From contig CM119265.1 of NCBI GenBank assembly GCA_051294375.1, forward strand, positions 28,022,665-28,086,664: a stretch of DNA of 64,000 nucleotides. Direction: 5' to 3'. The notes beneath the pieces were generated by a model. That model did no database searches, was not told the origin of the DNA, and worked only from the letters and a program-made list of their open reading frames with translations. A program made the translations under genes and the position numbers. This DNA is from Paraspadella gotoi. Its lineage: Eukaryota; Animalia; Chaetognatha. Below, in pieces: positions 2,186-45,143 of the stretch (the first letter of the stretch is position 1; every line of letters starts with the position of its first letter).

Positions 2186-3972
2186 NNNNNNNNNNNNNNN
2201 NNNNNNNNNNNNNNNNNNNNNNNNNNNNNNNNNNNNNNNNNNNNNNNNNNNNNNNNNNNNNNNNNNNNNNNNNNNNNNNNNNNNNNNNNNNNNNNNNNNN
2301 NNNNNNNNNNNNNNNNNNNNNNNNNNNNNNNNNNNNNCTTCTCCCAAATCTTCTAATCCCAGTCTCCCTTCGCCGGGAAAAACCTTCTTCGACTTTCCGG
2401 TCTTCCGGCGGATCGGGTCATTTCCGGCCGCCCGAGAAAAGACGCGTAACGGTGCCGCCATCGACCCGCCCCCCCNNNNNNNNNNNNNNNNNNNNNNNNN
2501 NNNNNNNNNNNNNNNNNNNNNNNNNNNNNNNNNNNNNNNNNNNNNNNNNNNNNNNNNNNNNNNNNNNNNNNNNNNNNNNNNNNNNNNNNNNNNNNNNNNN
2601 NNNNNNNNNNNNNNNNNNNNNNNNNNNNNNNNNNNNNNNNNNNNNNNNNNNNNNNNNNNNNNNNNNNNNNNNNNNNNNNNNNNNNNNNNNNNNNNNNNNN
2701 NNNNNNNNNNNNNNNNNNNNNNNNNNNNNNNNNNNNNNNNNNNNNNNNNNNNNNNNNNNNNNNNNNNNNNNNNNNNNNNNNNNNNNGAGAGAGAGAGAGA
2801 GAGAGAGAGAGGAGGGATAAGCCCAATTTTTGTGTGCCATATTCGTTGCTCCAAATTGAGATTCAAAATTAATAATTTATGACCAGTCATTGACCACGGA
2901 CAAAAAAATTGAGCGGATACTTAGTTTTTTAATTAAAACTAAAAGTCAAATCAACCAATCAATAAATCATTCAATCAATTAATCTATCAATCAATCATTC
3001 AATCATGCAATCTATCGATCACTCCAATCAATCCGAAATCAATCATTTGGTCTTAAATTCACTCATTCACTTCTCAAATAGTTTTCCCTGGCGGGTTGGC
3101 GTTCACCTGTAATCCTCTAGTTCACAGGAGCCTGGTGATGCTGGCGGAATTGACCAAGGAATCTGGATTGGCCTGTTATTCCATCAGCAGGCCGTCCGCT
3201 TTAACGACTGGCATCCCTTACTGGCAATACCATCAGCCGAATGCTTGCCGTCGTTTCCTCTGACCTGTCTAACGCCGGGGTAAATATGAAGGATATCCCG
3301 ATTGGAGCTGCTTGGTGCATTCTTCTGCGATTCCATCTTGACAGATCAGAGGGTCCTTGGTTCCCACGCATTGCCCACTTTTTTTTTCGCAAATTATGTT
3401 TAAAAAATTCTATGAAATTGGTGCAAACTACATAGATTTTTGTTGTTTTACATTTTGTTTAATGCTGATGATATTCAATCGTTCAGTAATCAATTGTATG
3501 AGATAAATATAAATATAAATATATATGATAAATGCTTAAATTAAATTGTTGCGAATTTGGACATAAATTTGTTGCCATACAGTCAGTAATATTTATCAAA
3601 ATCAATGAGCTTTGTCAAGTTCGAAATCGTTGTTTTTTTTTAATAACAATTGCATTTAAAAATAAATAAAACGATTTAATTTTAAAAAAACTATTTTTGG
3701 ATCGTTCGATCGATTGACCGTGACACGTGATCGGAAATCCAAATGTGAGATCAAATCAACGGCTTCAAATCACTCGCGTCTAAAAAAGTGAGATTTTTTA
3801 CGAAAATTTTGAGTGAATTTTATGATTTTTTTAGAATTTAAATCATTCGAAAAATTTTATAAAATTCACAGAAAAATCAAAGAAAAATGAATTGATTTGA
3901 TGAAAAAAATAAAATTTAATCGAACAAGAGTTTCCCTCGCTGGCGTTACTAACTATTCCCAGAACAAAGAAT

Positions 3973-4018
<46 letters not shown>

Positions 4019-4200
4019 TTGGCTGTGACGCAGTAATGCTCCACGTGCCATTTGGGGAATCGGGTCATCCTGGGGAGGAACTTCGCGCGGAAAATTTTTA
4101 TGGAGACGTGGCGGTTTTGGGGAAACGAGGAACAGATATCGGGGATCGGAGATGGAGGATAAGGGATAAAGGATCGGTTATGGGTAGATTAGAAAGACAT

Positions 4201-4282
<82 letters not shown>

Positions 4283-4471
4283 TATACTTTTTCGTTTGTT
4301 TTTCCTCCCAAAATATTTTTTTTAATCCAAACTGAACAAAGAATAATTTGTCTTTTGACGCAAATTACATTTTCATTTACTTTTTTCTTGGTCTGCTGAG
4401 TGGGGGGGGCAGACATTTTGTTTTTCGCTGATCCGAGTTACAAAGTTGGAGTCTAACAGAGATAATCAATC

Positions 4472-4504
<33 letters not shown>

Positions 4505-4627
4505 TAATCATTAATTAATCAATCACGAAAGCAAAAATGATGTATAAAGTACAATTGAAAAAAAGTGAAGGTGAAGTAGGAAAAGCAAATGATAGAGATC
4601 TGAGAAAAGCATCGGGTATGCGCTGCT

Positions 4628-4765
4628 GACAAAAGGATGATGACAGAGGCTAATGACAAAGGCAGTTAATCAAGTTTGATTAAAAAGGGTAATGACAAAG
4701 GCTAATGACAAAGGCTAATGACAAAGGCTGATGACCAACGCTAATGACAAAGGCTGAAGACAAAG
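4628..4765 (+). repeat. 12-bp minisatellite (TGACAAAGGCTA)n
   Basis: Direct inspection. Confidence 0.8.
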
Positions 4766-5660
4766 AAAAAAGATAAACGAAGAGCAATGGTTTGTATCGA
4801 CTGACCGACCATATCTTCCGGAGCATCACCCCGGTGAGACTTACCCTTGCCGCTGCCTTTGTCTTAGTCTTTACCGAAACGACCTTACCAACGCTGGGTG
4901 AGGCGTCGGTGGTGATAAACCTTCCATTTTACGAGGATTTTATATTTTTACCTTGTGTCATAATTTATTCTCGTTTTACGTTTAAGTGGATTATGGCAAC
5001 GAACAAAATTCATTGCACCAAATATGTACAATTAAAGCTGTTCAATTGTTGAGAATGCATGGTATTTGGGAGTGAATAAACTAGACTGTGAGAGTCTCGA
5101 TTCTAAGGCTTGCAAGGACCTGATAAGTTATTATTTTGTGAGAGTGATGGAATCCGTGTGTCACGGTCCGTGACGCATGAGTTGAGATAACTTATCTATG
5201 GTTAATTTGTATATTGATTGTATCGATTCTATGAACGAAAAGTGGAAATAAACTAGGATTTATAAAATTAAAACGTTACAACCAATAGAAAAATTATCCT
5301 TTCATTTAATAAATAAGCTATATGACACAATGNNNNNNNNNNCATTGTGTCATATCTTGCTATCTAAGATTTATAAGATTTGTTTTGTTTTTTTATCGAC
5401 TTACTACAGATTATGTTTTATGTTTTCTCTTCTTCGATATTAGATTTAAAAAAAAATATTTCGTTTTTTTCTCTTAATTATTATGAAGGGAAAAAAATAC
5501 ACGAATAATCGATAAGAAAAAAAAAGAAAACTGGTGAGATAAAGAAGGATGGAAAAACGATAGCAACTGACTGATAATTAATATAATAATATATAAAATA
5601 TAAAAGGAAATAATGGCAGAAAGACGCGAGACAAGAATGCAGTGACAGCAGATGCTGAAC

Positions 5661-10056: not shown

Positions 10057-10104
10057 AAGAGAGAAAGAGAGAGAGTGAGTGAGAGCAGAGAAAAGGAAGG
10101 GTGT

Positions 10105-10295
10105 TTGATTTGTGGTTGATTGGTGGTCGATTGGTAGTTGATTGGTGGTTGATTGGTGGTTGATTTTGGTTGATTGGTGGTTGATTTGTGGTCGATTGGT
10201 GATCGATTGGTGGTCGATTGGTAGTTGATTGGTGGTTGATTTGTGGTTGATTTGTGGTCGATTGGTGATTGATTGGTGGTCGATTGGTGGTTGAT
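10105..10295 (+). repeat. 11-bp minisatellite (GATTGGTGGTT)n
   Basis: Direct inspection. Confidence 0.9.
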
Positions 10296-10430
10296 TAATA
10301 ATTATTTGGGCGTAAATAGAATATAGCTTTCTGCAGATGAAAATGTCGATTGACTGGAATTCTTTGTCGTTGTCGTCATCGTCGTCTTTAGATTTTAGAT
10401 CTGTCTCTCGCGATCTATTTATATCCTTTA

Positions 10431-10687: not shown

Positions 10688-10839
10688 CTCTCACTTATAT
10701 TCAAAATTCAGCTCGTTTTCTTTTAATAATTCTATACTTTTAATTTTCTCATGTTTTTTTCGTTTCCTTAACTTTTTTGTCTCGGATATTTTTAGCTCGA
10801 AGGTCAAACAGTTTAGTCTTGACCCGTGAGTTGGGATAA

Positions 10840-11150
10840 AGTGATAGAAGTGAGATAAGTGAAGGAAGTGAGATAAGTGATGGAAATGAGATAACTGATA
10901 GTATTGAGATAAGTGATAAAAGTAAAATAAGTGATGGAAGTGACATAAGTGATAGAAGTGAGATAAGTGATAGAGGTGAGATAAGTGTTGGAAGTGAGAT
11001 AGGTGATAGAAGTGAGATAAGTGATAAAAGGGAGATAAGTGTTGGAAGTGAGATAGGCGATAGAAGTAAGATAAGTGATAGAAGTGAGATAAGTGATAGA
11101 AGTGAGATAGGTGATAGAATTGAGATAAGTGATAGAAGTGAGATAAGTTA
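10840..11150 (+). repeat. 18-bp minisatellite (GTGATAGAAGTGAGATAA)n
   Basis: Roughly 16-17 imperfect copies; translates as TSITYL repeats on the minus strand. Confidence 0.9.
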
Positions 11151-11539
11151 CAAAAAGGGTTAGATTAATATTAAGATAAAAAAAAAAAACGTATCCCACC
11201 ATAAGTGTAAAAAAACAAATTTATCCAATAATAAAATAATGAAAGACCCTCACATTTAACAAGTCTTATAGGCTTAAAAATAAAAACTTTTAGTTCCTCC
11301 TGCCTCCTTTAAAAAAAAATCATTCGTTGGTAGAGTAATTTTTATAATTAACATTCCTTTACAATAATTTTTATTTAATTAATTAATTAACATACCTTTA
11401 AAAAAATCATGCCATCCTTTTTTTTGGTCTTTATCTACAACATATTTTTTTTAATTTATTTTTAATTCAATCCTCGAGGGAGAACACAATTTATGATCCC
11501 ACGATTAATAAAACTTCTGCGCCATCGTATATTAAAATA

Positions 11540-12196: not shown

Positions 12197-12459
12197 AGAA
12201 AGAGAGAGAGCGATTCGGTGCGACCGATAATTGTGACACTCGCTTCAATTTTCGTCCAATTGTTCACGTGATGTGAAATCAAGACGAGCGTTCGATTTCA
12301 GTTTCAAATTCGTTTTGTGAAAAATTAAGGAAAAATCAGTTGACGAAATTTATTCGTCGGAATAATATTCTCTCTTCTCTTTTTGTCTACTCTATTCTTC
12401 AATCTTTCTTCTCTATTTTCTGCGATTCTCTCTCTCCTGTCTATTCTCCGTTTTCTTTC

Positions 12460-13055
12460 TGTAGAAGAGATTGGCGTGGTTTATTCTCTTCATTTACATC
12501 ATTTTCTTCATTTACGTTTTCTGCATTTACTTGGGAGATTTTTCTCCACTTTCTTTCTCCTTTAGATATATAGGCCTCAGTAGATACTCATAGACTTTCT
12601 ACCCGTCCACAAACGGCTTTTCACGAGAGAGACAGAGCCGTTACGTTACGTCAAGCACCTTTTGTCACCGTTTCAGAACAGTCATTTGATGGGTCCAGGA
12701 CCCACAGGGAGACCACATAGACTCGATGTCGAGATAGACTTGTGGACACACTTGTGGAGGCCGAGGCTCAGACTTTGACCCACTGCTACGGACTTATGGT
12801 CTCACCATCTAGAGACCACAGAGGGTCTTGGTGACCTTGTCGACCACGGCCCACGTCGCCCCATAGGCGTCGACGGGCTCTTCTTCCCAAGACGGCGGCC
12901 GGCCGTAGGAGACGTCCGCGAGCAGATGTCGGCAGGGCCGCGCCCACTTCCGGCGAAGACGACGAGGGACGCGTACGTCAGTCTCTTTACGTTGGAGCAA
13001 GACGGGGAGGAGGACGGAGAGACGACCCCCACGTAGGGCTAAGACAGCCTTTACA
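12460..13055 (+). repeat. 5' LTR of the BEL/Pao element
   Basis: Starts TGTAG, ends TTTACA. Near-identical to 23813-24406, differing mostly by 1-nt indels. TATA-like TATATA at 12567-12572. Confidence 0.95.
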
Positions 13056-13065
13056 GTGAAAAGCC
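13056..13065 (+). promoter_or_regulatory. Non-canonical primer-binding site GTGAAAAGCC (candidate self-priming site)
   Basis: Abuts the 5' LTR end, lacks TGG, and is the exact reverse complement of GGCTTTTCAC at 12615-12624 inside the LTR. Confidence 0.7.
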
Positions 13066-13221
13066 TAAACTGTCTCTCCGTGTTGGGTCTCTACTCAAGT
13101 ACGGTGAGTATGACAGTATCACAGTACCTTATTTGAAGACATGAATTTATAGACATCAGTAGCTTGTAGACTAACACTGTGTATATTAAAACCTTATTTA
13201 TCTTGTTTGCATATACGCGCG

Positions 13222-16200
13222 ATGGCATCCTCTCAGCCCGATGGCCCCCCGCAGGATGGGGTGGGTGGAACTAGTCCCGAGGAATTCGCCGACCAACTTG
13301 AATGCCTGCGACATACATTCCAAGGCCTGTTCAACAGGGCCCTCGAAACCGGGACTCAGGCAGATCGTACCTCCGCAAATAGCATGCGGGAGGCCCTGGG
13401 GGCTAAGAAAGAGGCAGCGATGCATCTCGCGGGCGAGTATAGACTTCGAAATAATCATCCGTTGTCATTAGCTATAGTCAGAGTAAGAGACTTCATGGAA
13501 GATAATCCTCAATTCCCTCTAACTTTCACGGGACTGGGAAACATGACAACCACAAATAACCCTGGATCCCGACCCGGATCCCGGGCCACTTCCCCATTTC
13601 TTCCTCTCCCCAACCCCACAAGTGGAACAGTGGGAAGAGGTGGGGGCCGTGGAAGCAGTGGGCGGGCAACGCCAACAGTGGGGGGGGCAGCGGCAAATCA
13701 AGAGGAAGAAGCTCCCATAGCTTCTCGTCTCAGGTCATCTGTGTCAGCCCCTCCGTTTCAGACTGCTTTCATGACCCCCCTCTTGAGCGAAGCAAATGGG
13801 CAATTGGAGAGAAATAGACCTACGGGCGAACAATTCACTGCTTTCAGGCCGATACGCCCTGATAATCTGTCTCAAAGAATTAACACGGCAACAACTACGG
13901 GATTGTGTGCAACCGTAGCCACTGCAACAGCGACATCAACAGTAGTCACCACAACGATTATTGATACAATACCGACAGCTTCGATAACATCAGCCTATCC
14001 CCCCACAAGCTCGACAGACGAAATTCGACGAGCAGTGGAAGGGGCGATGCAGCAGGTTGTGAATGAACAGGCGGCCAGAGTCAATCAAGCTGAGGAAGAA
14101 TATGAGAGAGAATTGGCAGCTCTTCGACAACGACATCAGCAACAATTAGAGGCTGCCGAACGACAAGCGGCTCGTCAGCGCCTCAGAGTGCGACATGAGT
14201 CTGAGGAGTTGAATCGCACACTCGATGCTCGGACACTCAACGACTACAACCCGACAATCCTGCCGGCGGTTTTTTCGGGGCATGTGCCAGTATCTACGGC
14301 ACCGCCCCCGATTACAGCTGGAGTTGGCGCGGGTGTCAATGCGCCTCGGTCGGGAAATCTCCTCGCAGATTTAGCGGCAGGATTGGCCGCCCGAACTCCA
14401 AGAGTAGTCCTTCCCACCGAAAACAGCCCGCCGGCAGCAGATATTACCTCATTGAGTGGACGATTATCAGCCATGGAGATTCACGCTCAGCGTCAAGCAG
14501 CAGCCCACGAAGCTGAGAGAGAACGGTGGAGGACCGATCGAGAGAATTGGCGGGCAGAAAGGGAGAGTTATGAGAGAAACTTTGAATCAAGGGTGGTGAG
14601 GATGGTGACCATGCTAACAGGTCAAGCAAGTGCAGGAAGCGCTCTTCCAGCACCTGCCCCTCCTCCGCCACCTCTACGTCATCCCCCCCCTCCAGGTCCG
14701 CTCTTGGGAGGTTTCACGTCTCGAACAGATGTGCCAGTTCACGAGAGATGTCCTCCACTAACAAGAGACCCAATATTTCAGATCCAACAAGATCAAATTG
14801 CGCAACTGACAGATCAACTCGGTCAACTTCAAAATCGTTTAGCTAATATTAGCATGGAGAGACACGGTGAGGGAGAAGCTCTGGAGGCGCACACGCCTCC
14901 ACCGACTAATCCCCCAGAATCCAGACAATTTGAGCGTTATTTACACTCTCAGTCTACGGAATCTACTATCCGTATGCTGAAGGACTTACGTCCTGAAGAA
15001 GTGTTCATGAGTGAAGATGCAAAGAACAAAGTAGTTTTTGAGATACACATGCGGCAATGGGAATCGGTAATGTCTCAACCTGGCGTCACCGATCAGATGC
15101 GCCACCAGGAGCTGCGACACTGGTTCGGAGGCTTAGCCAGACTGAAGCTTCAAAAATACTTCCATCGTACCGATTACGCCTCAGCCGTCGCAGAAGCAAT
15201 CTCCATGCTGCAACGTGAATTTGGCCGACCGGATGCCTCTCCCCACGAGATGCTCAAAGACTGCCTATCTGGGGGAAAGGCTACGGAAGCCACAGAGATT
15301 GATGAGACAATAACACGCCTTGAAAACATCATCGGCATTGCAGAGGCCAAAGGCCGGATGCGAGACCTCAACCGTGATACCGTTATCGCCGAGATTCTTG
15401 ACACTAAATTTCCACAATGGAAAGATAAATTTGCAGAGGGAAACTCGGAATCAGTCTTCAAAAACAACAGAAAACTGACGATACATGAATTTGTCGAATT
15501 TCTTAAGATTCGCCTTGTGGCTGTAAAATCTGTCTATTTCAAGAAAAAACGATCCACTTCAACCGCTGTAGCAGCGGTGGCTTCCTCCTTGAACCCACCA
15601 CCCCCGGAAATGAACGGTGGGGGCCCACCAGAAGCCACAGGAGAGAATAGGAATAATGAGTCCTTGGACTCCTTAGAGGGAACTGATCCCACACGTTCCG
15701 AACAAAGACGAAGGAAACGATCCAGAAGAAGAAAAAGCAAAGAAAGAATACCCGAAATACCGGCTACGGCTGCTCCGAGCGAAACAGGCTGCGCCTATGT
15801 GATGGCCCAACAACCCCTGTACCAGGCCCCTCAGCCACCACAGCAGCCGATTCATCAAACAACCACAGCCGTCCCATCCCAAACACCTCAAGCGCCAACG
15901 CTGAATCCCGGAGCACCGATGTACGCATCGACACCAAATCGGCCAGCGACACTGCATTGTCACTTTTGCGGTCAGGCTCATATGATTTGGGATTGTGCAG
16001 GATATCAAGCACTTGGCGTCCAGGCGAGAGCAGACCTGATCGCAGGTAGAAGATTGTGTTTTAAGTGTTTGGGCGGATCACATTTAGCTTCAAGATGTAG
16101 AATGGGTATACAATGTACAGTCTGTAGAGGCAATCACCATATCACTCTGCATGGCATGGCACCTGTGCGCAGACTGAACCCTTTGAATCAATCAGTTCAG

Positions 16201-16455
16201 TATCAGCCAGCCCAGAGTTACCCTCAAACGCTTAGTTATGCCACTCCTGTATTCGTTAATCCCTCTCCCCCCACCCTCGCTCCCTTCCCCACAACCCAAC
16301 CCCCGTACCAGGCACCCGGGATGGTGAGTGGAGTTACAGCATTGGCCAACAATGGAGCCCCAGATGCAAGTCAAATTACTCCGAAGATGACGGCGGCTAT
16401 GCCCTCGACGGTGACGACAACGCCCACCGTCCAAGCTGGAACTGCCTCTAGTTGA
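13222..16455 (+). CDS. gag: BEL/Pao Gag (~1077 aa)
   Basis: Long ORF from ATG 13222 with the triple knuckle CHFCGQAHMIWDC / CFKCLGGSHLASRC / CTVCRGNHHITLH near the C-terminus. The N-terminal half is low-complexity and coiled-coil-like. Confidence 0.92.
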   Translation: MASSQPDGPPQDGVGGTSPEEFADQLECLRHTFQGLFNRALETGTQADRTSANSMREALGAKKEAAMHLAGEYRLRNNHPLSLAIVRVRDFMEDNPQFPLTFTGLGNMTTTNNPGSRPGSRATSPFLPLPNPTSGTVGRGGGRGSSGRATPTVGGAAANQEEEAPIASRLRSSVSAPPFQTAFMTPLLSEANGQLERNRPTGEQFTAFRPIRPDNLSQRINTATTTGLCATVATATATSTVVTTTIIDTIPTASITSAYPPTSSTDEIRRAVEGAMQQVVNEQAARVNQAEEEYERELAALRQRHQQQLEAAERQAARQRLRVRHESEELNRTLDARTLNDYNPTILPAVFSGHVPVSTAPPPITAGVGAGVNAPRSGNLLADLAAGLAARTPRVVLPTENSPPAADITSLSGRLSAMEIHAQRQAAAHEAERERWRTDRENWRAERESYERNFESRVVRMVTMLTGQASAGSALPAPAPPPPPLRHPPPPGPLLGGFTSRTDVPVHERCPPLTRDPIFQIQQDQIAQLTDQLGQLQNRLANISMERHGEGEALEAHTPPPTNPPESRQFERYLHSQSTESTIRMLKDLRPEEVFMSEDAKNKVVFEIHMRQWESVMSQPGVTDQMRHQELRHWFGGLARLKLQKYFHRTDYASAVAEAISMLQREFGRPDASPHEMLKDCLSGGKATEATEIDETITRLENIIGIAEAKGRMRDLNRDTVIAEILDTKFPQWKDKFAEGNSESVFKNNRKLTIHEFVEFLKIRLVAVKSVYFKKKRSTSTAVAAVASSLNPPPPEMNGGGPPEATGENRNNESLDSLEGTDPTRSEQRRRKRSRRRKSKERIPEIPATAAPSETGCAYVMAQQPLYQAPQPPQQPIHQTTTAVPSQTPQAPTLNPGAPMYASTPNRPATLHCHFCGQAHMIWDCAGYQALGVQARADLIAGRRLCFKCLGGSHLASRCRMGIQCTVCRGNHHITLHGMAPVRRLNPLNQSVQYQPAQSYPQTLSYATPVFVNPSPPTLAPFPTTQPPYQAPGMVSGVTALANNGAPDASQITPKMTAAMPSTVTTTPTVQAGTASS

Positions 16456-19400
16456 CTAGCGGTTGCGTCCATCCCAGGCGAAGCGACATTTCGTCCAGTC
16501 GTGCCTGTCGTTGTCGAGATGGGTGGACGCAAAGCCACGACCTACGCCATGATCGACAGCGGTTGCAACCGCTGCGTCATCAAAGAAAAAATTGCAGATC
16601 AACTAGGGTTAGCTAGAATTGAAATTCCTATGAGAATTAGAACATTAGATAGTGATACTATAATCTCAAAAAACGTTGCAGACTTTAATTTCGAACCCCT
16701 CGACGGTAGCTTTTCCATCTCCGTTAAGAAAGCCATTGTGGGAAACCTGCTGACATCAGAAGACGACCTTCCCCCTTGCAACGCAGATGTGGCTGGAATA
16801 CCTCATCTAGAGGGGGTTTCGTTTCCTGATCTCCATGACAAGGAGGTCGGGATGCTCATCCCAGCGGGATACGCCTACACATGGACTGATGGAGAAGTAC
16901 GTCGAGGCCCTAAAGATCAACCTATAGCTATGGAAACAATGTTTGGTTGGACATTGATAGGCCCGCGTCGCGGGAAAGGCGGAGATGATATAAATTGTGC
17001 CCGTCTTACCGTCGAGGAAGACGAAAAAAGGATTCAAGAAGATATTCGCCTCCTTTTCCATCGAGATTTCGTCCCAGCTCCAAGCAGCAAGAAACTGCCA
17101 TCCGTGGAGGACGAGTTCGCGATGGAACAGTTGAAGGCAACAATAAGGTTTGACAATGAAGTTGGGCATTATTTTGTTGGCCTTCCCTGGGTTAGAGGCA
17201 GGGAGAAGGCAGCGAACGTTCTTAATGGTAGGGACTCGGGGACTATGGCATTAAACCGCCTCAGATCTCTCATGAGAAAACTTGAACGCCGTCCGGGGGA
17301 CAAAAAGAAGGTGGTCGACGAAATGAAGAAGTTTGTGGATGAAGGACATGCGCGTAAGGTTGAAGGAGACAACCTTCCCGAAAATACACCGTATTGGACT
17401 CTCCCGCTTCTTGTTGTCGTACGACCAGATAAAGACAAAGTACGCATCTGCCATGACGCCCGTGCGAGCGCCGGAGGCAAATGTTTAAACGACGAACTGT
17501 TGACTGGTCCAGATTATATGACCAATATGCTGGGAGTACTGCTTCGTTCCCGGCGTCATCAAGTCGCTCTCTCTGCGGACATCCGCGGTTTTTTCCATCA
17601 GGTGTTCGTAGATGAGAATGACGTACATGTATTTAGGTACTGGTGGTTTGAAGATGAAGCGTGCACTAAACTAGCACTGTTTGAACTCAGAGTGCACATA
17701 TTTGGGGCAAAGAGTTCCCCAGTGGTAGCAAACTCTGAAGACACATGCCGAGACGCTTCGGGGATTCATCCCGTTGGAGGTGGTGGAAGCCATCATTCAA
17801 CAGTTTTATGTTGATGACTTTTTTGGGTCTGCCCCAGACGAACAATCTGCGCGTGACCTCAAAGAAGGTTTGACGGAAGCTCTCCGACGAGGTGGCTTCG
17901 AGCTTACAAAGTGGAAATGTACGTCACCATCTGTGCTGGAAGACGAACCCAACAAGGCTACAAACTTAAAAAAGTCATTTACTGACGGCAACGATAATGA
18001 TACGAAAGACGAAAAACCTTACGACAAAGTGTTGGGAGTATGCTTCTCGTTCGGCAGTGACGAATTTTCATATAATGTAAATCTCGAAAAGGTCCAGAGA
18101 AGATGTCTCACAAAAAGACAGATCTTGTCGCTCACAGCAAGTCTGTACGATCCCTTGGGTATAGTATCGCCCTTTGTTCTCAAAGGGCGCAATTTATTTC
18201 AGCGCGCGAATGCAGCTTCAGTGGATTGGGACTCCCCTCTGCCAGACGAGATCATTAAGGAGTTCGACCTCTGGAGGGAGCAAATTCCCCAGCTAAAGGA
18301 ATTCCATATGAAGCGATGGATTGCGACGCCGGAGACTACAGATCATAAGGCTGAGTTGCATGTTTTTTCTGATGCTAGCCATGATGGATATGGTGTTGCT
18401 TGTTATCGACGTACGGTACCGCCTGAAGGAGGCGAATCTCATGTTGCTTTTTTGTTTTCAAGGTCGCGAGTTACACCCCTCGACTCATCAAAGGCATCTC
18501 ACCACAACTCCATCCCTCGACTGGAGCTGACGGCGGCGTGCCTGGCGGCGGAGATAAGATACATGATTCAAGAAGAATGCACCAACGATCGGTTTGAAAA
18601 AGTTGTTATGTGGACAGATTCAGAGACAGTCCTTAAACAGATATTTGACAAAAAGTCCAAATTTGCTGCCTTTTTTAAGAATCGCTTGTCTCGTATCAGG
18701 GAGCTAACCGACATCGGAGACTGGCGGTACATATCGACCCATGAAAATCCTGCAGACGATTGTAGTCGCGGCCTTCGTCTTGATGATCCAAAGTGGAAGA
18801 GATTTCACTTCGGCCCAGATTTCCTACGTCGTCCAGAGGAGGAGTGGCCGGAGCAAAAATTATCACCGTCATCTCTTTCATCCGAAGTTTTCGTGACCGA
18901 TGTCGACGACATCGAACCAGAGGAAAACCCAAAAAAGAAAAATACTAAGGATGAACATTGGGCATTACGCATTGCGCGGCAATGTTCCGACTCACGCCAA
19001 AAACTCTATTTGATTGCCGGAATGAAAAAATGTATTCTACACTGGATTGAATGGAGACGCGCGTTGAAGATAGATCCCAACGCACAACCAAAAAAACTAC
19101 AGTACACTACGCTCAAAGACACAAAAGACGCAGAAAAACTTTTGTGCCAAGCATTACAATTACGATATTTTGCGGACGAATACCGTCATCTCGAACAAAA
19201 AAACGTCCGATCCCCAGATGCGCGAGCGGAGCTAACGCTGACAAAATCTAAACTGCGGACGCTCAATCCCTTCCTGGATGAAGCGGGCATCATTCGAATC
19301 GGCGGAAGAATTGGAAAGGCACATTTGCCTTACGATACACGACACCCCATAGTACTACCAAAAAAAGATAGGATTGTGGATGACTACATCCGACATATCC

Positions 19401-20491
19401 ACAAAACTGAGGGTCACTCGGGTGTCGATCACGTTATGGCGCATATTCGACGCCGCTTCCACATACCCTCAGCCCGTCAAACCATAAAATCTGTTTTACG
19501 ACGATGTATAATTTGTCAAAAGAATTTCCGTGGTCCAGCGACGCAGAAGATGGGTGATCTTCCGGCCGAGAGACTCGATCGCGGCGCCCCCTTTGAGGCA
19601 ACCGGGGTCGATGTCTTTGGCCCCTTTAGAGTAGTTCACGGAGGACGAGGAAGCGCAAAAAGATGGGTCGTCATATTCACTTGCATGAAGATACGTGCCG
19701 TGCACCTGGAAGTTTTGCATGACCTCTCTTCCTCATCATTCATCAATGCCCTCATTCGTTTTAACTCGCGACGACCTGGTTCCAAAAAATTTTTCAGCGA
19801 CAATGGATCCAACTTTCGTGGAGCTGACGTCGAGTTGAGGGCGGCGGTGGAGAAATGGAAGAGCGAGCAGACGATCCGTTCAATGATCAATTACGGTATA
19901 GAATGGATTTTCTCCCCCCCTCTCGCCCCACACTGGGGCGGGGTGTGGGAGCGATTAATAAAATCTGCAAAAAAACATTTAACGGTTCTTTTGGGTAAAG
20001 AAAAATTAAGTGTAGAAATACTTGCAACGGCGCTTGCTTCCGTTGAAGGAATCATGAACCGACGCCCATTGACAAGAAGTCCAGATGACCCAAATAGTCT
20101 TGACGCGCTGACACCGATGGATTTACTTTTCCCGGGCGTACACGCACCAGCAAGGAGAATAATTGTTCCGCCAGAGTCGCTCGATGGCGACGCACTTTGT
20201 AGTTCTTGGAAGGAAGCGAGGCGGATCAGCGACGAATTCTGGGATAGGTGGACACAAGAGTACGTGGTTACTCTTCAAGAACGTCAAAAGTGGAACACCA
20301 CCCAAGAAAATCTTAAAGAAGGACAATTAGTACTAATGGTAGACGAACTCAAAGCTAGAGACCAGTGGAGACTGGCACGCGTGGTTGACGCCGGAAATGG
20401 AACGCATGTCAGACGCGTGACAGTGCGGACAGCAAGTGACAAAATCTTCGAGCGAGACCGCAATCGCCTGGTCCCTCTAGAATGTGACTAA
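16456..20491 (+). CDS. pol: BEL/Pao Pol (protease, RT, RNase H, integrase) with one frameshift near 17730
   Basis: Protease AMIDSG; RT LNDELLTGP, ADIRGFFHQV, FGAKSSP, FYVDD; RNase H LHVFSDAS, IPRLEL, WTDS, NPAD; integrase H..GH..CIIC, GVDVFGP, SDNGSNF, GGVWERL. ORFs 16501-17814 and 17774-20491 join via a frameshift at ~17729-17735. Confidence 0.95.
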
Positions 20492-20812
20492 GATTATTAT
20501 TAAGATTATTATTTATAAACATAACAAGTGACTGATGCTTACATCTGGTCACCAAGACGTTATTACGTTATTATGCTTACATAAAGACGTATAAAAATAA
20601 TCAAATTTTCTGTGTTCAGAAAACTTTTACTTTTATTTTGTCTTCCAATTTTTTTTTAGCATCATTTGTAAATTCTGTTCAAAAAAAAAAAATTTTTTTT
20701 TTACTTAGATTGATTTTCTTTCCTCTTTTTTACTTCTTTTATTTATCCAAAGCCAATTTATGTCTGTTTGCAGAGTTATTTCCTTTACGATAAATTAAAA
20801 ATTTCCTTGAAC

Positions 20813-22974
20813 ATGAGTCGACAAGCTCCATCAAACTACCGTCCTCATCAACTGAACCAGCCGGGCGCGACAACCACGATCGTTACGATTCACCCAATGG
20901 CAGTGGGTTCTGCGGCCGCTTGGGTCGCCTTTGGAAGACGGCGTTTCTTGGATCCAGTGTACGCTATCCTCGGCACTTTGTCGCCGCAGGAGTTTGAATC
21001 GCAGTTAGGGCCATGGGCGGACGCGGGAGATCTTACGGCGCATCTCCCACCAGAGGGCGCACTATCTGCGCTGTGGCGCCTAAGGAAAACGAGCGGCCGT
21101 TCCATCACCATAGCAGACAACGTTAGTTGGTACCCGGGATGCACAGTCTCAAGCGCCCCAGATTCCATTGTTGTAAATCTACAACAGTCTACCTTCGATA
21201 ACTTAGACGAAGCACGGCAGGCTTTGGCCTCAGCGATTTCTCAAGGACGCAATCCCTGCCCCGCCCGTCCTTCCTCCCTCCCTTCTCTTCCTCGTGCGCC
21301 AGTTCCTCCTCCCCCCTCCCGAGCAGCAGCCATCCTGCTGCAAGAGGAGGCAAGGGCGGAGGAGCGGGCGCAACCAGAGGTTGAGATAGTGGAACGCGTG
21401 GTCGAGGAGGCATCACCTCCTCGAGCACGAAGAAAGAAAAAAAGGAGCGAACGACGCCGTACGATTAACAACGAGAGAATGGTTATGCACGCGAGAATGA
21501 TGGAGGCAAAGAACGTAACCCCTGAAGCTGCTGCTGCTTCGGTTCCAGCCAAGTCTTCTCCAGCCGGAGTGCCCGCTGTAAGCAGCGGGCAATCGGCTCC
21601 TCTCCCGGTAATGGACGTAGATGAAGATCAGGAAAAGATGGACGAGAATGATCCCTTTGGTCTCGAACAAGTCAAGAACAGCTCGACGCTATCTGCAGAG
21701 CCAAATCCTGTTGGTTTTAGCAGCCTCTGCGAGATCTCATCGCTTGGGTCGTCGAAAACTTGGTTCGATCGAGTAATCGAAGAGGAAGAGGAAGATAGGA
21801 GAAATGAGAGAGCCAAGCGAGCCGCACGTCAAAACGCAGAGATAGAACAAGATTTGGCGGCCGGCATCTTGGGACGGGTGGCGATGCATTCGCCTCAAAA
21901 TACCTCTACACCTGTCCACAATATTACAACTCCTACAGAACCAGGACAAAGGAGGTTTCTAATGAAATCAAAAGAAATTAATTTTTTTATTACATTTATT
22001 ACGTTATGTTTAATCTCTTTTACTTTATCTTTTCCCTTGTTTTCTCTTTTTCTCTCTCTTCTTCTGTCCTCTTTTTCTTTTTTTTTTCTCCTCCCCCCCC
22101 TTGTGTTCCCCATATACCCAGGTGCGACGTTTTCGATCCAAATGACTCCAACCCGATCATCGATCTGGAGTCCCTGCCAGAGAAAATTTCCGAACGCAGA
22201 AAGAGGGATTTCGGTTCAAAATCCAGCATCGAATCTTCGTCCGAAACAATTAGGGCCGGGAAAACGGAGGAGGAAGAGGAGGGAAAGAACGATAATCATC
22301 CGGACCACCAGACGTGGGGCTTACCTCGGGAGGAGGCGAATGAGGCACGCCGCCAATACCGTCAAGCTCAAGATCAACTCATGTCTGACGGCCAGATGTC
22401 GGTGGAGAGGTCTCAAAGATGGCGTGAATATAAAGCATGGGACGATCGTGGTGGCACCTTCGTTCGACCAGCTCGCCCACCAAAGAAGAAACGTACAATA
22501 ACTTTAACATCCGCGACCAGACCGAGGGGATGCCCCTCTCTCAATCCCCGTAACTTCGAAATCGACCCTAATCCTCATGGCTTTCGTTGCCAAGACGTCA
22601 GAAAGGAATATCGCGAAACTGCCATCACGTTCATTGAGAAACCTTCGGGAGAGACGACGGCAATCCCTTCAAGATCACTTTTCACTACGACGATCAAATC
22701 TTCCACTTCAGTGACCCCGACGACATCTGTCTCAATTCTACCTACAGTTACCACACCAATAAACGCAACAAGGACCGACGAAACATGCGACGAAATCAGC
22801 TTTCCGGATCCTTCCTCTATTTCTTCCACGGATGAGTCATTTGCCTCGGCCTACGACATCCCCGAGGCTGAGGCGAATTCCCCTTCCATGCCCGAGCTGA
22901 CTCTCGCAGAGGAACGATCCATCCTTGGTGAAGATGAAATCAAAATCACAATGGACGACAACGACGATCTCTAA
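20813..22974 (+). CDS. ORF3 of the BEL element; predicted spliced 664-aa protein of unknown function (exons 20813-21954 and 22122-22974)
   Basis: Two GC-rich open frames are separated by an AT/pyrimidine-rich GT...AG segment (21955-22121). Removing it joins them in frame (...PGQR-R-CDVFDP...). Basic NLS-like motifs RARRKKKRSERRR and PPKKKR. Confidence 0.7.
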
Positions 22975-23800
22975 GGTGACGATGAATTCCCGCATCTCAG
23001 ACCCGCTGGGCTCAGCGGGCCAAACGCGACGCAAGCCTCGCCAGCGTCGACGTCTTGATCTACTGCTTTCAGCGCGATCGACTCGGCGCGATGATCTCCA
23101 AAACCGGAACTGTTTTAAGGAAACGAACTTGAAATCTGGACTATTATCAAATTTATTCATGTATTTATTCATTAACTTCAAAAGACGGTGAATTTTATTT
23201 AAATTTTAAAATGGCGTTAACCTTTAAAAATCATGTTCGTACATATATTTTTTTTTCTTTTTCTATTGAACCACCAAGTTACTCTTTACGCGTTTTCGAA
23301 TTATGTACGTGAATCATGGAATCAAGATTGATTTTTCTTTCTTTAATCAAGTTGGTAAAGCAACGTTTATATATTCTGTTTATTTACTCACGTAGTGGTC
23401 ACACACATCTATGTCTTATGCTTTCATAATGTTTTATAGTAGAAAGTTGACGCATTTTTTAGGACATTTATTCATTAGCGATGACGTTAACGTTGGGATA
23501 CATTTTCTAATCATATTAATTTTGTCACTATTTCTTGAAAGCAAGATAGATCTACCGTTTGTAGCCGGGTTTTATAAACACTAAGAATAAGAACTAAAAT
23601 ATTTTCGATTCTTCCAATTTTTTTCTTCATTTTATCATTTCCTCATTTTTTTCTTTCTTTTTTTTATTATTTCCCTCCACCCTGACTCTTCTCTTCTTTT
23701 TTCCTTATTTCTGCCTTTTTTCCTTCTTTTTCCCGTCCCGACATCCCCCCCCCAGCTCGGAGCGGTGAGCGTGTTTGCTCCAGCCCTCTGAAGGAGTGCT

Positions 23801-23812
23801 GGAGGGTGGGGG
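23801..23812 (+). promoter_or_regulatory. Polypurine tract
   Basis: GGAGGGTGGGGG immediately 5' of the TG of the 3' LTR. Confidence 0.85.
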
Positions 23813-24406
23813 TGTAGAGAGTATTGGCGTGGTTTATTCTCTTCATTTACATCATTTTCTTCATTTACCGTTTTCTGCATTTACTTGGGAGATTTTTCTC
23901 CACTTTCTTTCTCCTTTAGATATATTAGGCCCAGTAGATACTCATAGACTTTCTACCCGTCCACAAACGGCTTTTCACGAGAGAGACAGAGCCGTTACGT
24001 TACGTCAAGCACCTTTTGTCACCGTTTCAGAACAGTCATTTGATGGTCAGGACCCACAGGGAGACCACATGACTCGATGTCGAGATAGACTTGTGGACAC
24101 ACTTGTGGAGGCCGAGGCTCAGACTCTGACCCACTGCTACGGACTTATGGTCTCACCACCTGGAGACCACAGAGGGTCTTGGTGACCTTGTCGACCACGG
24201 CCCACGTCGCCCCATTAGGCGTCGACGGGCTCTTCTTCCCAAGACGGCGGCCGGCCGTAGGAGACGTCCGCGAGCAGATGTCGGCAGGGCCGCGCCCACT
24301 TCCGGCGAAGACGACGAGGGACGCGTACGTCAGTCTCTTTACGTTGGAGAAGACGGGGAGGAGGACGGAGGAGCCGACCCCACGTAGGGCTAAGACAGCC
24401 TTTACA
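23813..24406 (+). repeat. 3' LTR of the BEL/Pao element
   Basis: TGTAG...TTTACA, direct repeat of 12460-13055. Confidence 0.95.
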
Positions 24407-24914
24407 CCTTTCTTCCTCTATTTTTATTTCTCATTCACTATTCCGAGTCTCTTCTTCTCTTATCTCTATTTTCTCTTTCCTATACCAGAATCTACGGCTA
24501 CCTCTCTATTCCACTTTCTTCAAACTCGAAAACAAAAAGATGCAAATTTTGAAAACTTGAAGAGGAAAACAAACAAAAGAAAATGACTAAAGCGATGACG
24601 ATGACAAAAAGGATGATGAAAATAATGACGATGACAGTGACGACGACGACGACAGCGACGACGGTGATAGCGATGACGATGACAGAGACGACGATGACAG
24701 CGACGACGGTGATAGCGATGACGATGACAGCGACGACGATGACAGAGACGACGATGATAGCGATGACGATGACAGGAATGTGGAGGAAACACGAAATATC
24801 ACTGTTTTAAAAACGATGGGAAACTTAATGACATAAACGACAAAGATGATGACAATGATAATTCGAAAGACGGCGAGAAAAAAATATCGCAATGATGGCA
24901 ATAATGAAGTCTGA

Positions 24915-24948
<34 letters not shown>

Positions 24949-25568
24949 CAGAAACGAAAATGACGAAGATATAATGAAGGAATAATGAGGAATGATGAAA
25001 ATTAAAAGAAAGACCATGAGTAAAATGATAATGATGACGATGACGATGACAACGAAAACAACAACAACGACGAGACACCTCCCCCTAAAAAAAAACGAAT
25101 TTCTAAACGAAATTTAAATTTCCTTTCAAAATTAATTCGTTCAAAGGAGCAGAAAAGAGTTTAAATTTGAAGAGTAGAGCTGATTTAAGGAGCTTAATAA
25201 TGTTGAGGAGTTAAAGAGAGGAGTTTTTTTTTAATTTAAAATGTGTCAAGATTGAATGAAGGAGTCAACCGAAATGGATTCACGTGAATAAGAAATTCAC
25301 TTAATCAAATTCAATAAAAAATTGTTAAGTAAATGAGTTGTTATGAAAAATAAAATATGAAAAGTGGGCGGTGAAATATGAAATACTTACGAATAAGTTT
25401 GGTTTGTCGAAAATATTCAAAGAATCTTTTTCCACCGAAAATGAAAAAAAAAAGAAATAATTTATTTTTTCTTTTTGTGCTGATCAAAAAAAATGGGGGC
25501 ATCGAGTGAAACCATCACCGGCGCCAAAAAGTGTGAAGATTCACAAAGAAGGAAGATGCAAATTGAAA

Positions 25569-25608
<40 letters not shown>

Positions 25609-40770: not shown

Positions 40771-41723
40771 CTGAAGGAAGGAAATTAATTAATTAATTAT
40801 TTATATTAATTATTTAATAAATAATAAATTTAAAAAAAAATAAATATTAAATAAATAAATTAATAAATTTAAAAAATAAAAGAATTAAAAATAAATAAAT
40901 ACAAAAATAAATGAATTGTTAGGCTTGGAACCCCGAAATCGGCCCCATCGGGATCCGGCCATCAGGGCGAGTAGCCAACTATTGGATGAAGAACTTTATC
41001 TCTAACTTGTAAATATCAAACCCTTAATTAAATCAAATATAACAAAAGACATATACCCGAGATTCGATCTCGGGACCTTGGGAAGCGGCAATGACATGTT
41101 GAGTGGCATTGCGCACACAGGCAGATACAATATAGATATTCCAATAACCTAATTATCCTTAAGTAGCATTTACTTATATGTTAAACAAATGAACAAACAC
41201 AATTAACACAGATAGATCTGCACTAGCTATCTCAACATATGTTTCACTATTGTTAACTAATTTCTCTTATTTCTCTTTTCTCTCTTCAATGAGAAAAGAA
41301 TTGTCAAATGAACTACAAATAAGTTTATGATGTTTATTACTGTTTATGCTTTATTTTGCTATTGTTGTTGCATATAGATGTTATAGCTGCTTGCTGACAA
41401 AAGCAACTGATATTCTATATGCTTTGATTATTTATTAAGGTCTGCTTTTATAATTAACCAAGCAAGTTGGTAAGAGACAATTTATTAATAAACAATAAAC
41501 TAACGGCGCCACGAGAACTACGCCAACGTCAACGTCTCCCATTTCCGGTCAACGTCTTTCCTCTTACTGATGCCCGTGGCGACGTTCCGCTCAATACCGG
41601 TTTGATCCGCACATTGGTGAAGTCCCGACTTCGACGTCGCGCCTTTCCATCTCTGAAAGGCGCTCCAACCTTCCGACACAACCACGCCTTCAAAAGACGC
41701 CGTCAATCTTCGGCGTCACCTTC

Positions 41724-42845
41724 TTGATGTCGCTTAACGTTCCAGGAGTCACGACGCGCGGCCAATCCCGGGCGACCCATCCTCCACAACCCCGCCTGCC
41801 GTCTCCACGCCTGGGGGAGGAAGAGGTCCCGGTGTCTCAAGTTGGCCGTCAATCAACGCCGACCTCAGCTGAACCGACCCAACTCTTTCAGTTTCCAGCT
41901 CCGGCCCGTTTTTTCAACAATCATCCGGCGATGGCCGAAGCCCCGCCGACCCAAACGGAGATGGATTCCCTCCGCTCCGCCCTCGACGCTGCTCTCGCCG
42001 CCGCCGAGGCCGCTCGTAACGCCTTAGCACGCAGCGAAAAACCCAAAAAACCCGAACTGCCGTCCTTCGATAAGAACAATATCGAAATTTGGATCAGAAG
42101 AGTCGAGTCAGCATATACAAGATCCAGAATCACGACTCCCAAAGACAAGTTCGCTTTTCTCGAGTCCAAGATAGCCGTCGACGTAAATCCAAAGATCAAC
42201 GCCTTTTTATTCGGTGAACCAACTGAAGAAAACTGGGCGGATTTCATTGATTACTTGAAGACCGAGTATGGTTTGACCAAACGTCGACAGGCCGAGATAC
42301 TACTGGATGCTAAAATAGGACGAGACGGCCTCAAGCCATCCCAACAGCTCGCCAGGATGGTCGAGCGTTCTCCAACAGTGACCGTGGATGACATTCGAAA
42401 GGAGCTGATTATCCGCAGCCTCCCCTTGGACATTCGTGCCAACTTAATCGATCGCGCCGATGAATTAACGGCGTCTCAATTTTCCGAGCTGGCCGACAAA
42501 CATTTTGACGCCGAGGGAAGGCCACTCTGCAAGTCCACGGCGCCCATAGTCAATGTCGTTGATGCGGAACTCGACGATTCTTTAACTGACGAAGAAAATC
42601 AAACGGCGATCAACGCCGTCAATCGACGCCGCGACCAAAACCGCTCGGCGCCGCCGAGGCATTCCAACTTCTCAAAGCAGGGCCAACCAAAGGCGCCGAC
42701 ACCGCCAGCCTCCGGATTAAAGCAAGTTTGCTTTTTTCATTTAAAGTATGGCGATGCTGCTCGACGTTGCCAACGCGGATGCGCCCGCTACGGAGAAAAA
42801 CGCGCCGATAATGCGGGAAACGCCTCGGCGAGCCGGCGCCGGTGA
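41724..42845 (+). CDS. gag: Gypsy Gag with CHCC zinc motif
   Basis: KPELPSFDKNNIEIWIRRVE N-terminal signature and CFFHLKYGDAARRCQRGC (C-X2-H-X9-C-X3-C), as in CsRn1-clade Gag. Confidence 0.85.
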   Translation: MMSLNVPGVTTRGQSRATHPPQPRLPSPRLGEEEVPVSQVGRQSTPTSAEPTQLFQFPAPARFFNNHPAMAEAPPTQTEMDSLRSALDAALAAAEAARNALARSEKPKKPELPSFDKNNIEIWIRRVESAYTRSRITTPKDKFAFLESKIAVDVNPKINAFLFGEPTEENWADFIDYLKTEYGLTKRRQAEILLDAKIGRDGLKPSQQLARMVERSPTVTVDDIRKELIIRSLPLDIRANLIDRADELTASQFSELADKHFDAEGRPLCKSTAPIVNVVDAELDDSLTDEENQTAINAVNRRRDQNRSAPPRHSNFSKQGQPKAPTPPASGLKQVCFFHLKYGDAARRCQRGCARYGEKRADNAGNASASRRR

Positions 42846-43189: not shown

Positions 43190-43912
43190 TGTAGAGAGAT
43201 TGGCGTGGTTTATTCTCTTCATTTACATCNNNNNNNNNNNNNNNNNNNNNNNNNNNNNNNNNNNNNNNNNNNNNNNNNNNNNNNNNNNNNNNNNNNNNNN
43301 NNNNNNNNNNNNNNNNNNNNNNNNNNNNNNNNNNNNNNNNNNNNNNNNNNNNNNNNNNNNNNNNNNNNNNNNNNNNNNNNNNNNNNNNNNNNNNNNNNNN
43401 NNNNNNNNNNNNNNNNNNNNNNNNNNNNNNNNNNNNNNNNNNNNNNNNNNNNNNNNNNNNNNNNNNNNNNNNNNNNNNNNNNNNNNNNNNNNNNNNNNNN
43501 NNNNNNNNNNNNNNNNNNNNNNNNNNNNNNNNNNNNNNNNNNNNNNNNNNNNNNNNNNNNNNNNNNNNNNNNNNNNNNNNNNNNNNNNNNNNNNNNNNNN
43601 NNNNNNNNNNNNNNNNNNNNNNNNNNNNNNNNNNNNNNNNNNNNNNNNNNNNNNNNNNNNNNNNNNNNNNNNNNNNNNNNNNGTCTTGGTGACCTTGTCG
43701 ACCACGGCCCACGTCGCCCCATTAGGCGTCGACGGGCTCTTCTTCCCAAGACGGCGGCCGGCCGTAGGAGACGTCCGCGAGCAGATGTCCGGCAGGGCCG
43801 CGCCACTTCCGGCGAAGACGACGAGGGACGCGTACGTCAGTCTCTTTACGTTGGAGCAAGACGGGGAGGAGGACGGAGAGACGACCCCCACGTAGGGCTA
43901 ACAGCCTTTACA
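43190..43912 (+). mobile_element. Third copy of the BEL LTR (solo LTR or gap-collapsed element)
   Basis: Same TGTAG start and TTTACA end with an internal N gap. Left flank matches 12383-12459 and right flank matches 24407 onward. Confidence 0.85.
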
Positions 43913-44419
43913 CCTTTCTTCTCTTATTTTTATTTCTCATTCACTATTCCGAGTCTTCTTTCTTCTCTATTCTCTATTTTCTCTTTCCTATTCCAGAATC
44001 TACGGCTACCTCTCTATTCCACTTTCTTCAAACTCGAAAACAAAAAGATGCAAATTTTGAAAACTTGAAGAGGAAAACAAACAAAAGAAAATGACTAAAG
44101 CGATGACGATGACAAAAAGGATGATGAAAATAATGACATGACAGTGACGACGACCGACAGCGACGACGGTGATAGCGATGACGATGACAGAGACGACGAT
44201 GACAGCGACGACGGTGATAGCGATGACGATGACAGCGACGACGATACAGAGACGACGATGATAGCGATGACGATGACAGGAATGTGGAGGAAACACGAAA
44301 TATCACTGTTTTAAAAACGATGGGAAACTTAATGACATAAACGACAAAGATGATGACAATGATAATTCGAAAGACGGCGAGAAAAAAATATCGCAATGAT
44401 GGCAATAATGAAGTTCTGA

Positions 44420-44453
<34 letters not shown>

Positions 44454-45073
44454 CAGAAACGAAAATGACGAAGATATAATGAAGGAATAATGAGGAATGA
44501 TGAAAATTAAAAGAAAGACCATGAGTAAAATGATAATGATGACGATGACGATGACAACGAAAACAACAACAACGACGAGACACCTCCCCTAAAAAAAACG
44601 AATTTCTAACGAAATTTAAATTTTCCTTTCAAAATTATTTCGTTCAAAGGAGCAGAAAAGAGTTTAAATTTGAAGAGTAGAGCTGATTTAAGGAGCTTAA
44701 TAATGTTGAGGAGTTAAAGAGAGGAGTTTTTTTTAATTTAAAATGTGTCAAGATTGAATGAAGGAGTCAACCGAAATGGATTCACGTGAATAAGAAATTC
44801 ACTTAATCAAATTCAATAAAAAATTGTTAAGTAAATGAGTTGTATGAAAAAATAAATATATGAAAAGGTGGCCGGTGAAATATGAAATACTTACGAATAA
44901 GTTTGGTTTGTCGAAAATATTCAAAGAATCTTTTTCCACCGAAAATGAAAAAAAAAGAAAATAATTTATTTTTTCTTTTTGTGCTGATCAAAAAAAAAAT
45001 GGGGGCATCGAGTGAAACCATCACCGGCGCCAAAAAGTGTGAAGATTCACAAAGAAGGAAGATGCAAATTGAA

Positions 45074-45143
<70 letters not shown>

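Follow-up and report, generated by a model that had tools for sequence, protein, structure and literature searches.

A BEL/Pao retrotransposon of Paraspadella gotoi predicted to prime reverse transcription with a piece of its own RNA

How does a retrotransposon begin reverse transcription when its 5' long terminal repeat (LTR) is not followed by the TGG that records the CCA end of a tRNA primer? The question is raised by an 11.9-kb LTR retrotransposon, assigned to BEL/Pao, that spans 12460-24406 of a 64,000-nucleotide (nt) stretch of repeat-rich animal DNA from the chaetognath Paraspadella gotoi (GCA_051294375.1, contig CM119265.1, positions 28,022,665 to 28,086,664; the whole stretch is called the window). 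An earlier note on this DNA had proposed that the element primes itself in the manner of fission-yeast Tf1. Our analysis supports that proposal by complements to the primer-binding site (PBS) in each element's own LTR and by covariation between the two in distant relatives; the start site, the cut and the priming itself are what we infer. We put at roughly 0.8 the probability that reverse transcription of this element is primed by a 10-nt piece of its own RNA, a Tf1-like fragment of the 5' repeat (R) region, and not by a tRNA. The features on which this reading turns are the following.

12460..13055, + strand: 5' LTR, 596 bp, TGT...ACA, delimited by alignment with the 3' LTR
12567..12572, + strand: putative TATA-like box (TATATA), from a motif scan
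12615..12624, + strand: predicted self-primer GGCTTTTCAC, whose 3' end would be at 12624, exact complement of 13056-13065
13056..13065, + strand: PBS GTGAAAAGCC, without TGG and with zero gap to the LTR
23813..24406, + strand: 3' LTR, carrying the primer 10-mer again at 23969-23978

The two LTRs are 97.3% identical, differ mostly by single-base indels and both have the form TGT...ACA; the element is flanked by a 6-nt target-site duplication with one mismatch. The alignment of the LTRs and a count of 10-mers across the window bear out the starting observation, namely that the 10 nt after the 5' LTR lack TGG and are exactly reverse-complementary to 12615-12624. In the whole window GTGAAAAGCC has a single occurrence, at 13056, and its reverse complement is found only at 12615 and 23969, the latter being the conserved copy in the 3' LTR that had also been pointed out. 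The helix is exactly 10 bp long and begins at the first base past the terminal CA; the next pair is a C/T mismatch. No TGG lies within 27 nt of the LTR end, the first being 28 nt beyond it, and no 18-nt tRNA PBS of the kind given by ICTV, the international committee for virus taxonomy, is present. A rule for self-primers in the available part of PMC6317226 asks for at least 10 bp beginning 0-5 nt after the LTR; the window element has 10 bp at offset 0. The TATA-like box, said in the earlier note to lie about 45 nt upstream, starts 48 nt upstream of 12615, and its copy in the 3' LTR has an extra T.

The chance of such a match was somewhat underestimated at 6e-4. A complement of 10 nt was kept in 70 of 20,000 dinucleotide shuffles of the LTR at offset 0 and in 149 of 20,000 at offsets 0-3, and 9 of the 10,747 internal 10-mers, PBS included, have a perfect complement in the LTR. 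Taken alone, the match in the window (p about 0.004-0.008) is suggestive and not decisive.

Relatives were collected with a profile built from 43 pol proteins, and the best 80 of 504 metagenome loci were taken. Each LTR was scored by the length of its longest stretch perfectly complementary to the PBS at offsets 0-6, either as it stands or after removal of a GTRAG...YAG intron; this intron-aware scoring was adopted because several complements are split by a GTRAG...YAG segment. All eight scored families whose LTR ends are fixed by repeat pairs lack TGG, and every PBS is different. Each is matched by its own LTR, over 11 nt in L018, 12 in L026, 10 in L031, 15 in L050, 15 in L064, 11 in L066, 13 in L073 and 12 in L080, compared with 10 in the window element. 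Against the LTRs of other families at least 10 nt was reached in 1 of 72 cross pairings (mean 6.0), and internal positions drawn at random attained the observed length 0 times in 1000 for every relative and 4 times in 1000 for the window; both controls were computed under a relaxed acceptor rule. As a negative control, five TGG-bearing BEL/Pao families, taken from animal DNA inside two metagenome-assembled genome (MAG) records, scored 5-6. In a blind scan that assumed no LTR end, complements of at least 11 nt were found on the locus's own sequence in 13 of 32 loci, compared with 33 of 992 cross pairs; at a threshold of at least 10 nt the figures were 19 of 32 and 109 of 992.

The earlier note had called for covariation between the PBS and the LTR complement, and this check was positive in distant BEL/Pao relatives, with the TGG families as negative control. 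Between L031 and L026 one T-A pair is swapped, between L018 and L051 the final pair changes from C-G to T-A, and between L050 and L021 both sides are one base shorter (exon 1 of L021 lies outside its contig). The covariation that marks Tf1-type self-priming was found in the distant branch only. Among 17 relatives tabulated, the match is contiguous in seven, as in the window, and is complete solely across a predicted intron in the LTR in ten; in the intron type the upstream exon supplies 4-9 nt of the match and the downstream exon 5-11 nt. Because the blind scan supplied nine of the 17, which were selected on account of their match, the table is a description and not a test. In all 18 cases (17 relatives plus the window) the helix starts 0-5 nt past the LTR end and has no internal G-U pairs; in 17 of 18 it ends in a true mismatch, and in 17 of 18, the window included, the PBS begins with GT or AT. 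In one relative from the other branch (L056, 2388-2401) the PBS starts with GTGAAAA, like that of the window, but a predicted intron splits its complement. In 15 of the 17 relatives a poly(A) hexamer follows the primer 3' end at a distance of 3-128 nt, an uncontrolled count that fits a primer located in R. Inspection by eye showed no promoter motif common to the elements at a constant distance upstream of the primers.

In Tf1 of Schizosaccharomyces pombe bases 1 to 11 pair, and the RNase H cut falls between base 11 and base 12 (PMC7175516). By analogy, transcription of the window element would start at or slightly upstream of 12615, and 12615-12624 would fold back onto 13056-13065. The element's RNase H would cleave after C12624, and reverse transcriptase would extend the primer 3' end into the unique 5' (U5) region starting from A13055. 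The short DNA would then jump to the 3' copy of R, downstream of 23978, and the plus strand would later copy the primer and so rebuild the PBS. Such copying back would explain why the matches are purely Watson-Crick, end abruptly and track one-base indels. The primer of Tf1 is reportedly not removed. In many relatives it is splicing of the LTR intron that would make the primer, and the PBS would then preserve the exon joint in the way that TGG preserves the CCA added to a tRNA. With the cut 5-11 nt into exon 2, the joint would never be copied into the LTR, and the intron would persist via the unspliced 3' copy. The window element is the intron-free form.

RNA folding brings in three further features, all on the + strand.

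13014..13024, + strand: U5 arm of a possible 11-bp U5-leader stem, P 0.99 when the PBS is held open
13071..13081, + strand: leader arm of the possible U5-leader stem, from a helix search and a constrained fold
13033..13054, + strand: possible U5 hairpin adjoining the PBS, from the constrained fold; not significant

For RNA 5' ends at 12613-12615 the primer helix had a probability of 0.72-0.99 at three of the four 3' ends tried and of 0 for the shortest. When the PBS was held open, the 11-bp U5-leader stem and the hairpin adjoining the PBS formed, in a layout like the 'pretzel' of Tf1. Part of this stem is a second 10-bp helix, 13014-13023 with 13072-13081, which accounts for the coordinate 13081 at which the feature had earlier been made to end. 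Competing helices lie near the site, at 12627-12635 with 13070-13078 and at 12605-12612 with 12740-12747.

The placement of the element was examined with an unrooted IQ-TREE tree (quick mode, 59 rows, about one per family; L076 and L131 were dropped for short matches). The window's branch holds 10 rows (Shimodaira-Hasegawa-like approximate likelihood ratio test, SH-aLRT, 100), the 18 self-matching relatives fall in a separate branch of 32 rows (SH-aLRT 99), and the six TGG rows form a third (SH-aLRT 99). The tested self-matching relatives are about 30-36% identical to the window element. L001 and L029 belong to the window's branch and their contigs lack the PBS region; in neighbouring small-branch loci (L039, L054 and L075 viewed) the LTR end was not definable. 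A scan intended for the branch of the window element brought up a TGG family and nothing else. Two protein scans of viral contigs gave no relatives, and the 26 matches to a 15-nt junction pattern in those contigs included none with a self-complement or LTR similarity. The window element thus appears as a second deep branch with the same signature, where the evidence is one family.

Several of these results weigh against self-priming, or against extending it to the window element. The covarying relatives sit in another branch, and the only readable PBS in the window's own branch is that of the window, whose match has the modest p value given above. For RNA starts up to 12601 the helix probability is at most 0.02 in the nested folding model, and a start 30 nt from the TATA-like box would fall near 12597, within that low range; a later start, or proteins or crossing helices beyond the nested model, would be needed. 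The pretzel stems were equalled by 22 of 200 shuffled leaders for the window, and in six relatives shuffles did as well in 65-199 of 200 (folding took in 12 of the 14 elements and skipped L050 and L066, whose 5' LTR is truncated). The LTR carries neither AATAAA nor ATTAAA in a motif scan, which leaves the end of R unmarked. The LTR introns are motif predictions only; L066 scored 7 under the first, stricter acceptor rule and 11 after it was relaxed; and L041, excluded for an unclear LTR end, has by eye one mismatch in 10. In the blind scan 13 of 32 loci fell below 10 nt, several of these misses being contigs broken inside the LTR.

Alternatively the primer could come from the host, as the 5' half of a tRNA cleaved within its anticodon arm or as some other small RNA, with the LTR match in this element arising by chance or secondarily. 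Priming by half-tRNAs without TGG is known in Copia lineages, according to the available parts of PMC6317226 and PMC5445492, and the window's own match is of limited significance. One host RNA is inadequate, because the 17 relatives have many different PBSs and each pairs with its own LTR; the PBS of the window element begins with GT like theirs. Of the 32 different tRNAs that ARAGORN called in the fetched loci, a set that is mostly bacterial and does not stand for host tRNAs, none of normal length matched better than 7 nt, at offset 3. In favour of a host primer, the anticodon arm of animal tRNA-Glu(UUC) resembles the PBS complement, with a one-base bulge. Overall we regard a host primer as improbable. 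The 10-mer is present in both LTRs, and self-priming could be pictured from the 3' copy (23969-23978), for example after cleavage of the RNA at the poly(A) site or close to it; that the 10-mer ends in a CA-like context and that no poly(A) hexamer marks such a site in the window element are in keeping with this. In 15 of the 17 relatives, however, the downstream position of the hexamer means that the primer end is not a normal poly(A) site, and a cut there would leave zero R for the strand jump. Moreover, a spliced and copied 3' LTR would lose its intron, whereas L064, for which both LTR copies are in hand, keeps it in both. Use of the 3' copy is therefore quite improbable.

The pairing might instead serve packaging, the formation of dimers or translation as a switch in RNA structure, with priming by something else. 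The competing helices that surround the site, and the dependence of the fold on the RNA start, would suit such a switch. Structural stems usually tolerate wobble pairs and positional drift. Against a switch, the pairing lies 0-5 nt past the terminal CA in all 18 cases, without internal G-U pairs and in the place of a TGG site, and we consider this reading very improbable. The earlier suggestion that self-priming would imply convergent evolution is not borne out. Convergence cannot be claimed because the tree is unrooted, and self-priming has already been predicted in Tf1/sushi, Tcn1 and the Copia TAR lineage (PMC6317226, in the part available). Self-priming in the two branches may also go back to a single origin.

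The remaining features of the element and its surroundings are listed here.

13222..16455, + strand: gag open reading frame (ORF) with Cys-His boxes, ending in TGA and followed by CTAG
16456..17814, + strand: pol piece 1 (protease, start of reverse transcriptase) in the gag frame, from Pfam Asp_protease_2 and RVT_1 (both under the curated cut-off) and tblastn
17729..20491, + strand: pol piece 2 (YVDD, RNase H, integrase), from Pfam domains and motifs
20714..22974, + strand: two low-complexity ORFs 3' of pol (20714-22501 and 21982-22974), from the ORF list
23801..23812, + strand: polypurine tract, directly abutting the 3' LTR, from the sequence
43190..43912, + strand: third LTR copy with the same flanks; an N gap at 43230-43682 hides the 10-mer position

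Membership in BEL/Pao, as the earlier note had assigned it, is read from Pao-type pol domains in the order protease, reverse transcriptase, RNase H and integrase (PR-RT-RH-IN). In pol piece 2, Pfam gave Peptidase_A17 (E 7.8e-41), DUF5641 (E 2.5e-22) and Integrase_H2C2. The same Pfam scan gave no chromodomain match, and with Pao-specific families present the element does not belong with the Ty3/Gypsy chromoviruses. Two Cys-His boxes of gag were found by pattern and a third, similar one by eye, and pol is interrupted by a single frame break near 17730. Between gag and pol an in-frame TGA is followed by CTAG both in the window (16453-16459) and in the branch relative L029 (1988-1994), and all 12 Pol proteins of the branch that were checked start at the protease, without the Gag zinc knuckle. 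UGA-CUAG is a leaky stop and a read-through signal; conserved read-through of the gag-pol stop codon is likely. The leader (13104-13237) has, ahead of gag, a GTGAGT resembling a donor site, an ACTAAC resembling a branch point and a run of pyrimidines, which suggests a possible leader intron.

The 3.3-kb region after pol (20492-23812) contains the two low-complexity ORFs and no Pfam families, and no homologue was found for residues 30-200 of the first. In L001, of the same branch, pol is likewise followed by an additional ORF (2510-4807), dissimilar to both. The third LTR copy lies in a longer duplicated segment (24176-25604 and 43683-45109) and may be either a solo-LTR allele or an assembly duplicate. 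An ORF at 41571-42845 has a weak DUF7041 match (E 0.003) and is probably the gag of another retroelement. Tandem arrays occupy 10787-11220, 10078-10329 and 24572-24800, with units of 9/18, 11 and 15 nt. Contigs of run X1 cover 12540-12718 with zero differences; one tracks the LTR to 13056 and then diverges, and another, of 308 nt, matches 12589-12621 only; at the LTR these contigs show no starts, ends or splice joints. The two records from which the TGG families came (G001 and G002, L081-L131), filed as bacterial MAGs, are rich in animal DNA, in which BEL/Pao and Gypsy-like elements are numerous, and five families in them share one TGG-type PBS. ARAGORN found no tRNA gene in the window, and a tRNA primer encoded by the element was rejected on this ground. 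The Caenorhabditis elegans element Cer7, which we take to carry its own tRNA, would be a precedent, and a paper search gave no confirmation of it. A search of 12300-24500 with Rfam gave a single match, below the gathering threshold and judged to be chance.

On balance we lean towards a wider conclusion, that a large share of the BEL/Pao elements of aquatic animals, in at least two deep branches, would be tRNA-free and form a third self-priming LTR superfamily, with the spliceosome building the primer in many families and the window element as the intron-free form of the second branch. The mechanism of self-priming has been elucidated for fission-yeast Tf1 alone, with predictions for two further groups. 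Should it be widespread among animal BEL/Pao elements, both the description of the family and PBS-based annotation tools miss these, and such elements would escape the tRNA fragments that act against a tRNA PBS. Self-priming would be old, possibly ancestral, outside the tRNA-primed branches, and the order of self-priming and tRNA-priming would become testable on a third superfamily. A splice-assembled primer would also tie retrotransposition to host splicing and explain why an intron persists inside an LTR.

That BEL/Pao self-priming is apparently undescribed agrees with a literature search that found none, in a coverage that excludes subscription journals and Repbase reports. The term 'PBS' is absent from the main texts of the BEL/Pao surveys PMC554778, PMC3118150 and PMC6238403 and from that of PMC2774666, and the available portions of PMC3601003, PMC12451622, PMC8220671, PMC3286476, PMC5445492 and PMC6934838 describe no self-priming of BEL/Pao elements. 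What we propose is a variant of a known mechanism in a superfamily where the searched literature does not describe it.

Several known systems share parts of this picture. With Belpaoviridae/Semotivirus (BEL, Pao, Tas, Sinbad and Suzu) the window element has in common a Cys-His gag, the PR-RT-RH-IN order, YVDD, DAS, Peptidase_A17, DUF5641 and TG...CA LTRs. The ICTV profile of that family calls its replication poorly understood and describes host-tRNA priming from an 18-nt PBS for tRNA-Arg or tRNA-Gly (PMC8742986); this PBS is absent here, and 11.9 kb exceeds the stated 4.2-10 kb. Fungal GalEa Copia elements (PMC5445492) and bivalve terminal-repeat retrotransposons in miniature (PMC6934838) also lack a tRNA PBS, but in the parts of these papers available their inverted repeats are internal and the authors saw no LTR complement or gave no clear mechanism. 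In Copia elements of the Osser/Bianca type the PBS pairs with the anticodon arm of a tRNA, which is half-tRNA priming. Closer is the TAR lineage of plant Ty1/Copia (Houba, Osr-1), where the accessible text of PMC6317226 predicts self-priming from a complement of at least 10 nt placed 0-5 nt past the LTR; these are plant elements of the Copia superfamily, and for them there is prediction only.

The nearest parallel is the Tf1/sushi group, the Ty3/Gypsy chromoviruses that include Tf1, Tf2 and, among plants, Tcn1. Like the window element, they have no tRNA PBS and carry beside the LTR a 10-11-nt PBS complementary to their own R. The window element differs in being BEL/Pao by its domains, and its primer would lie at the very 5' end of the RNA or a short way from it. 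The three-duplex 'pretzel' of Tf1, as given in the available part of PMC10085805, can be drawn for the window element, though not above chance. A splice-joint primer, which many BEL/Pao relatives would need, is not described for Tf1/sushi in the portions of the literature examined. On the evidence of its pol, which decides the superfamily, the window element would work like Tf1 and yet stand outside the Tf1/sushi group.
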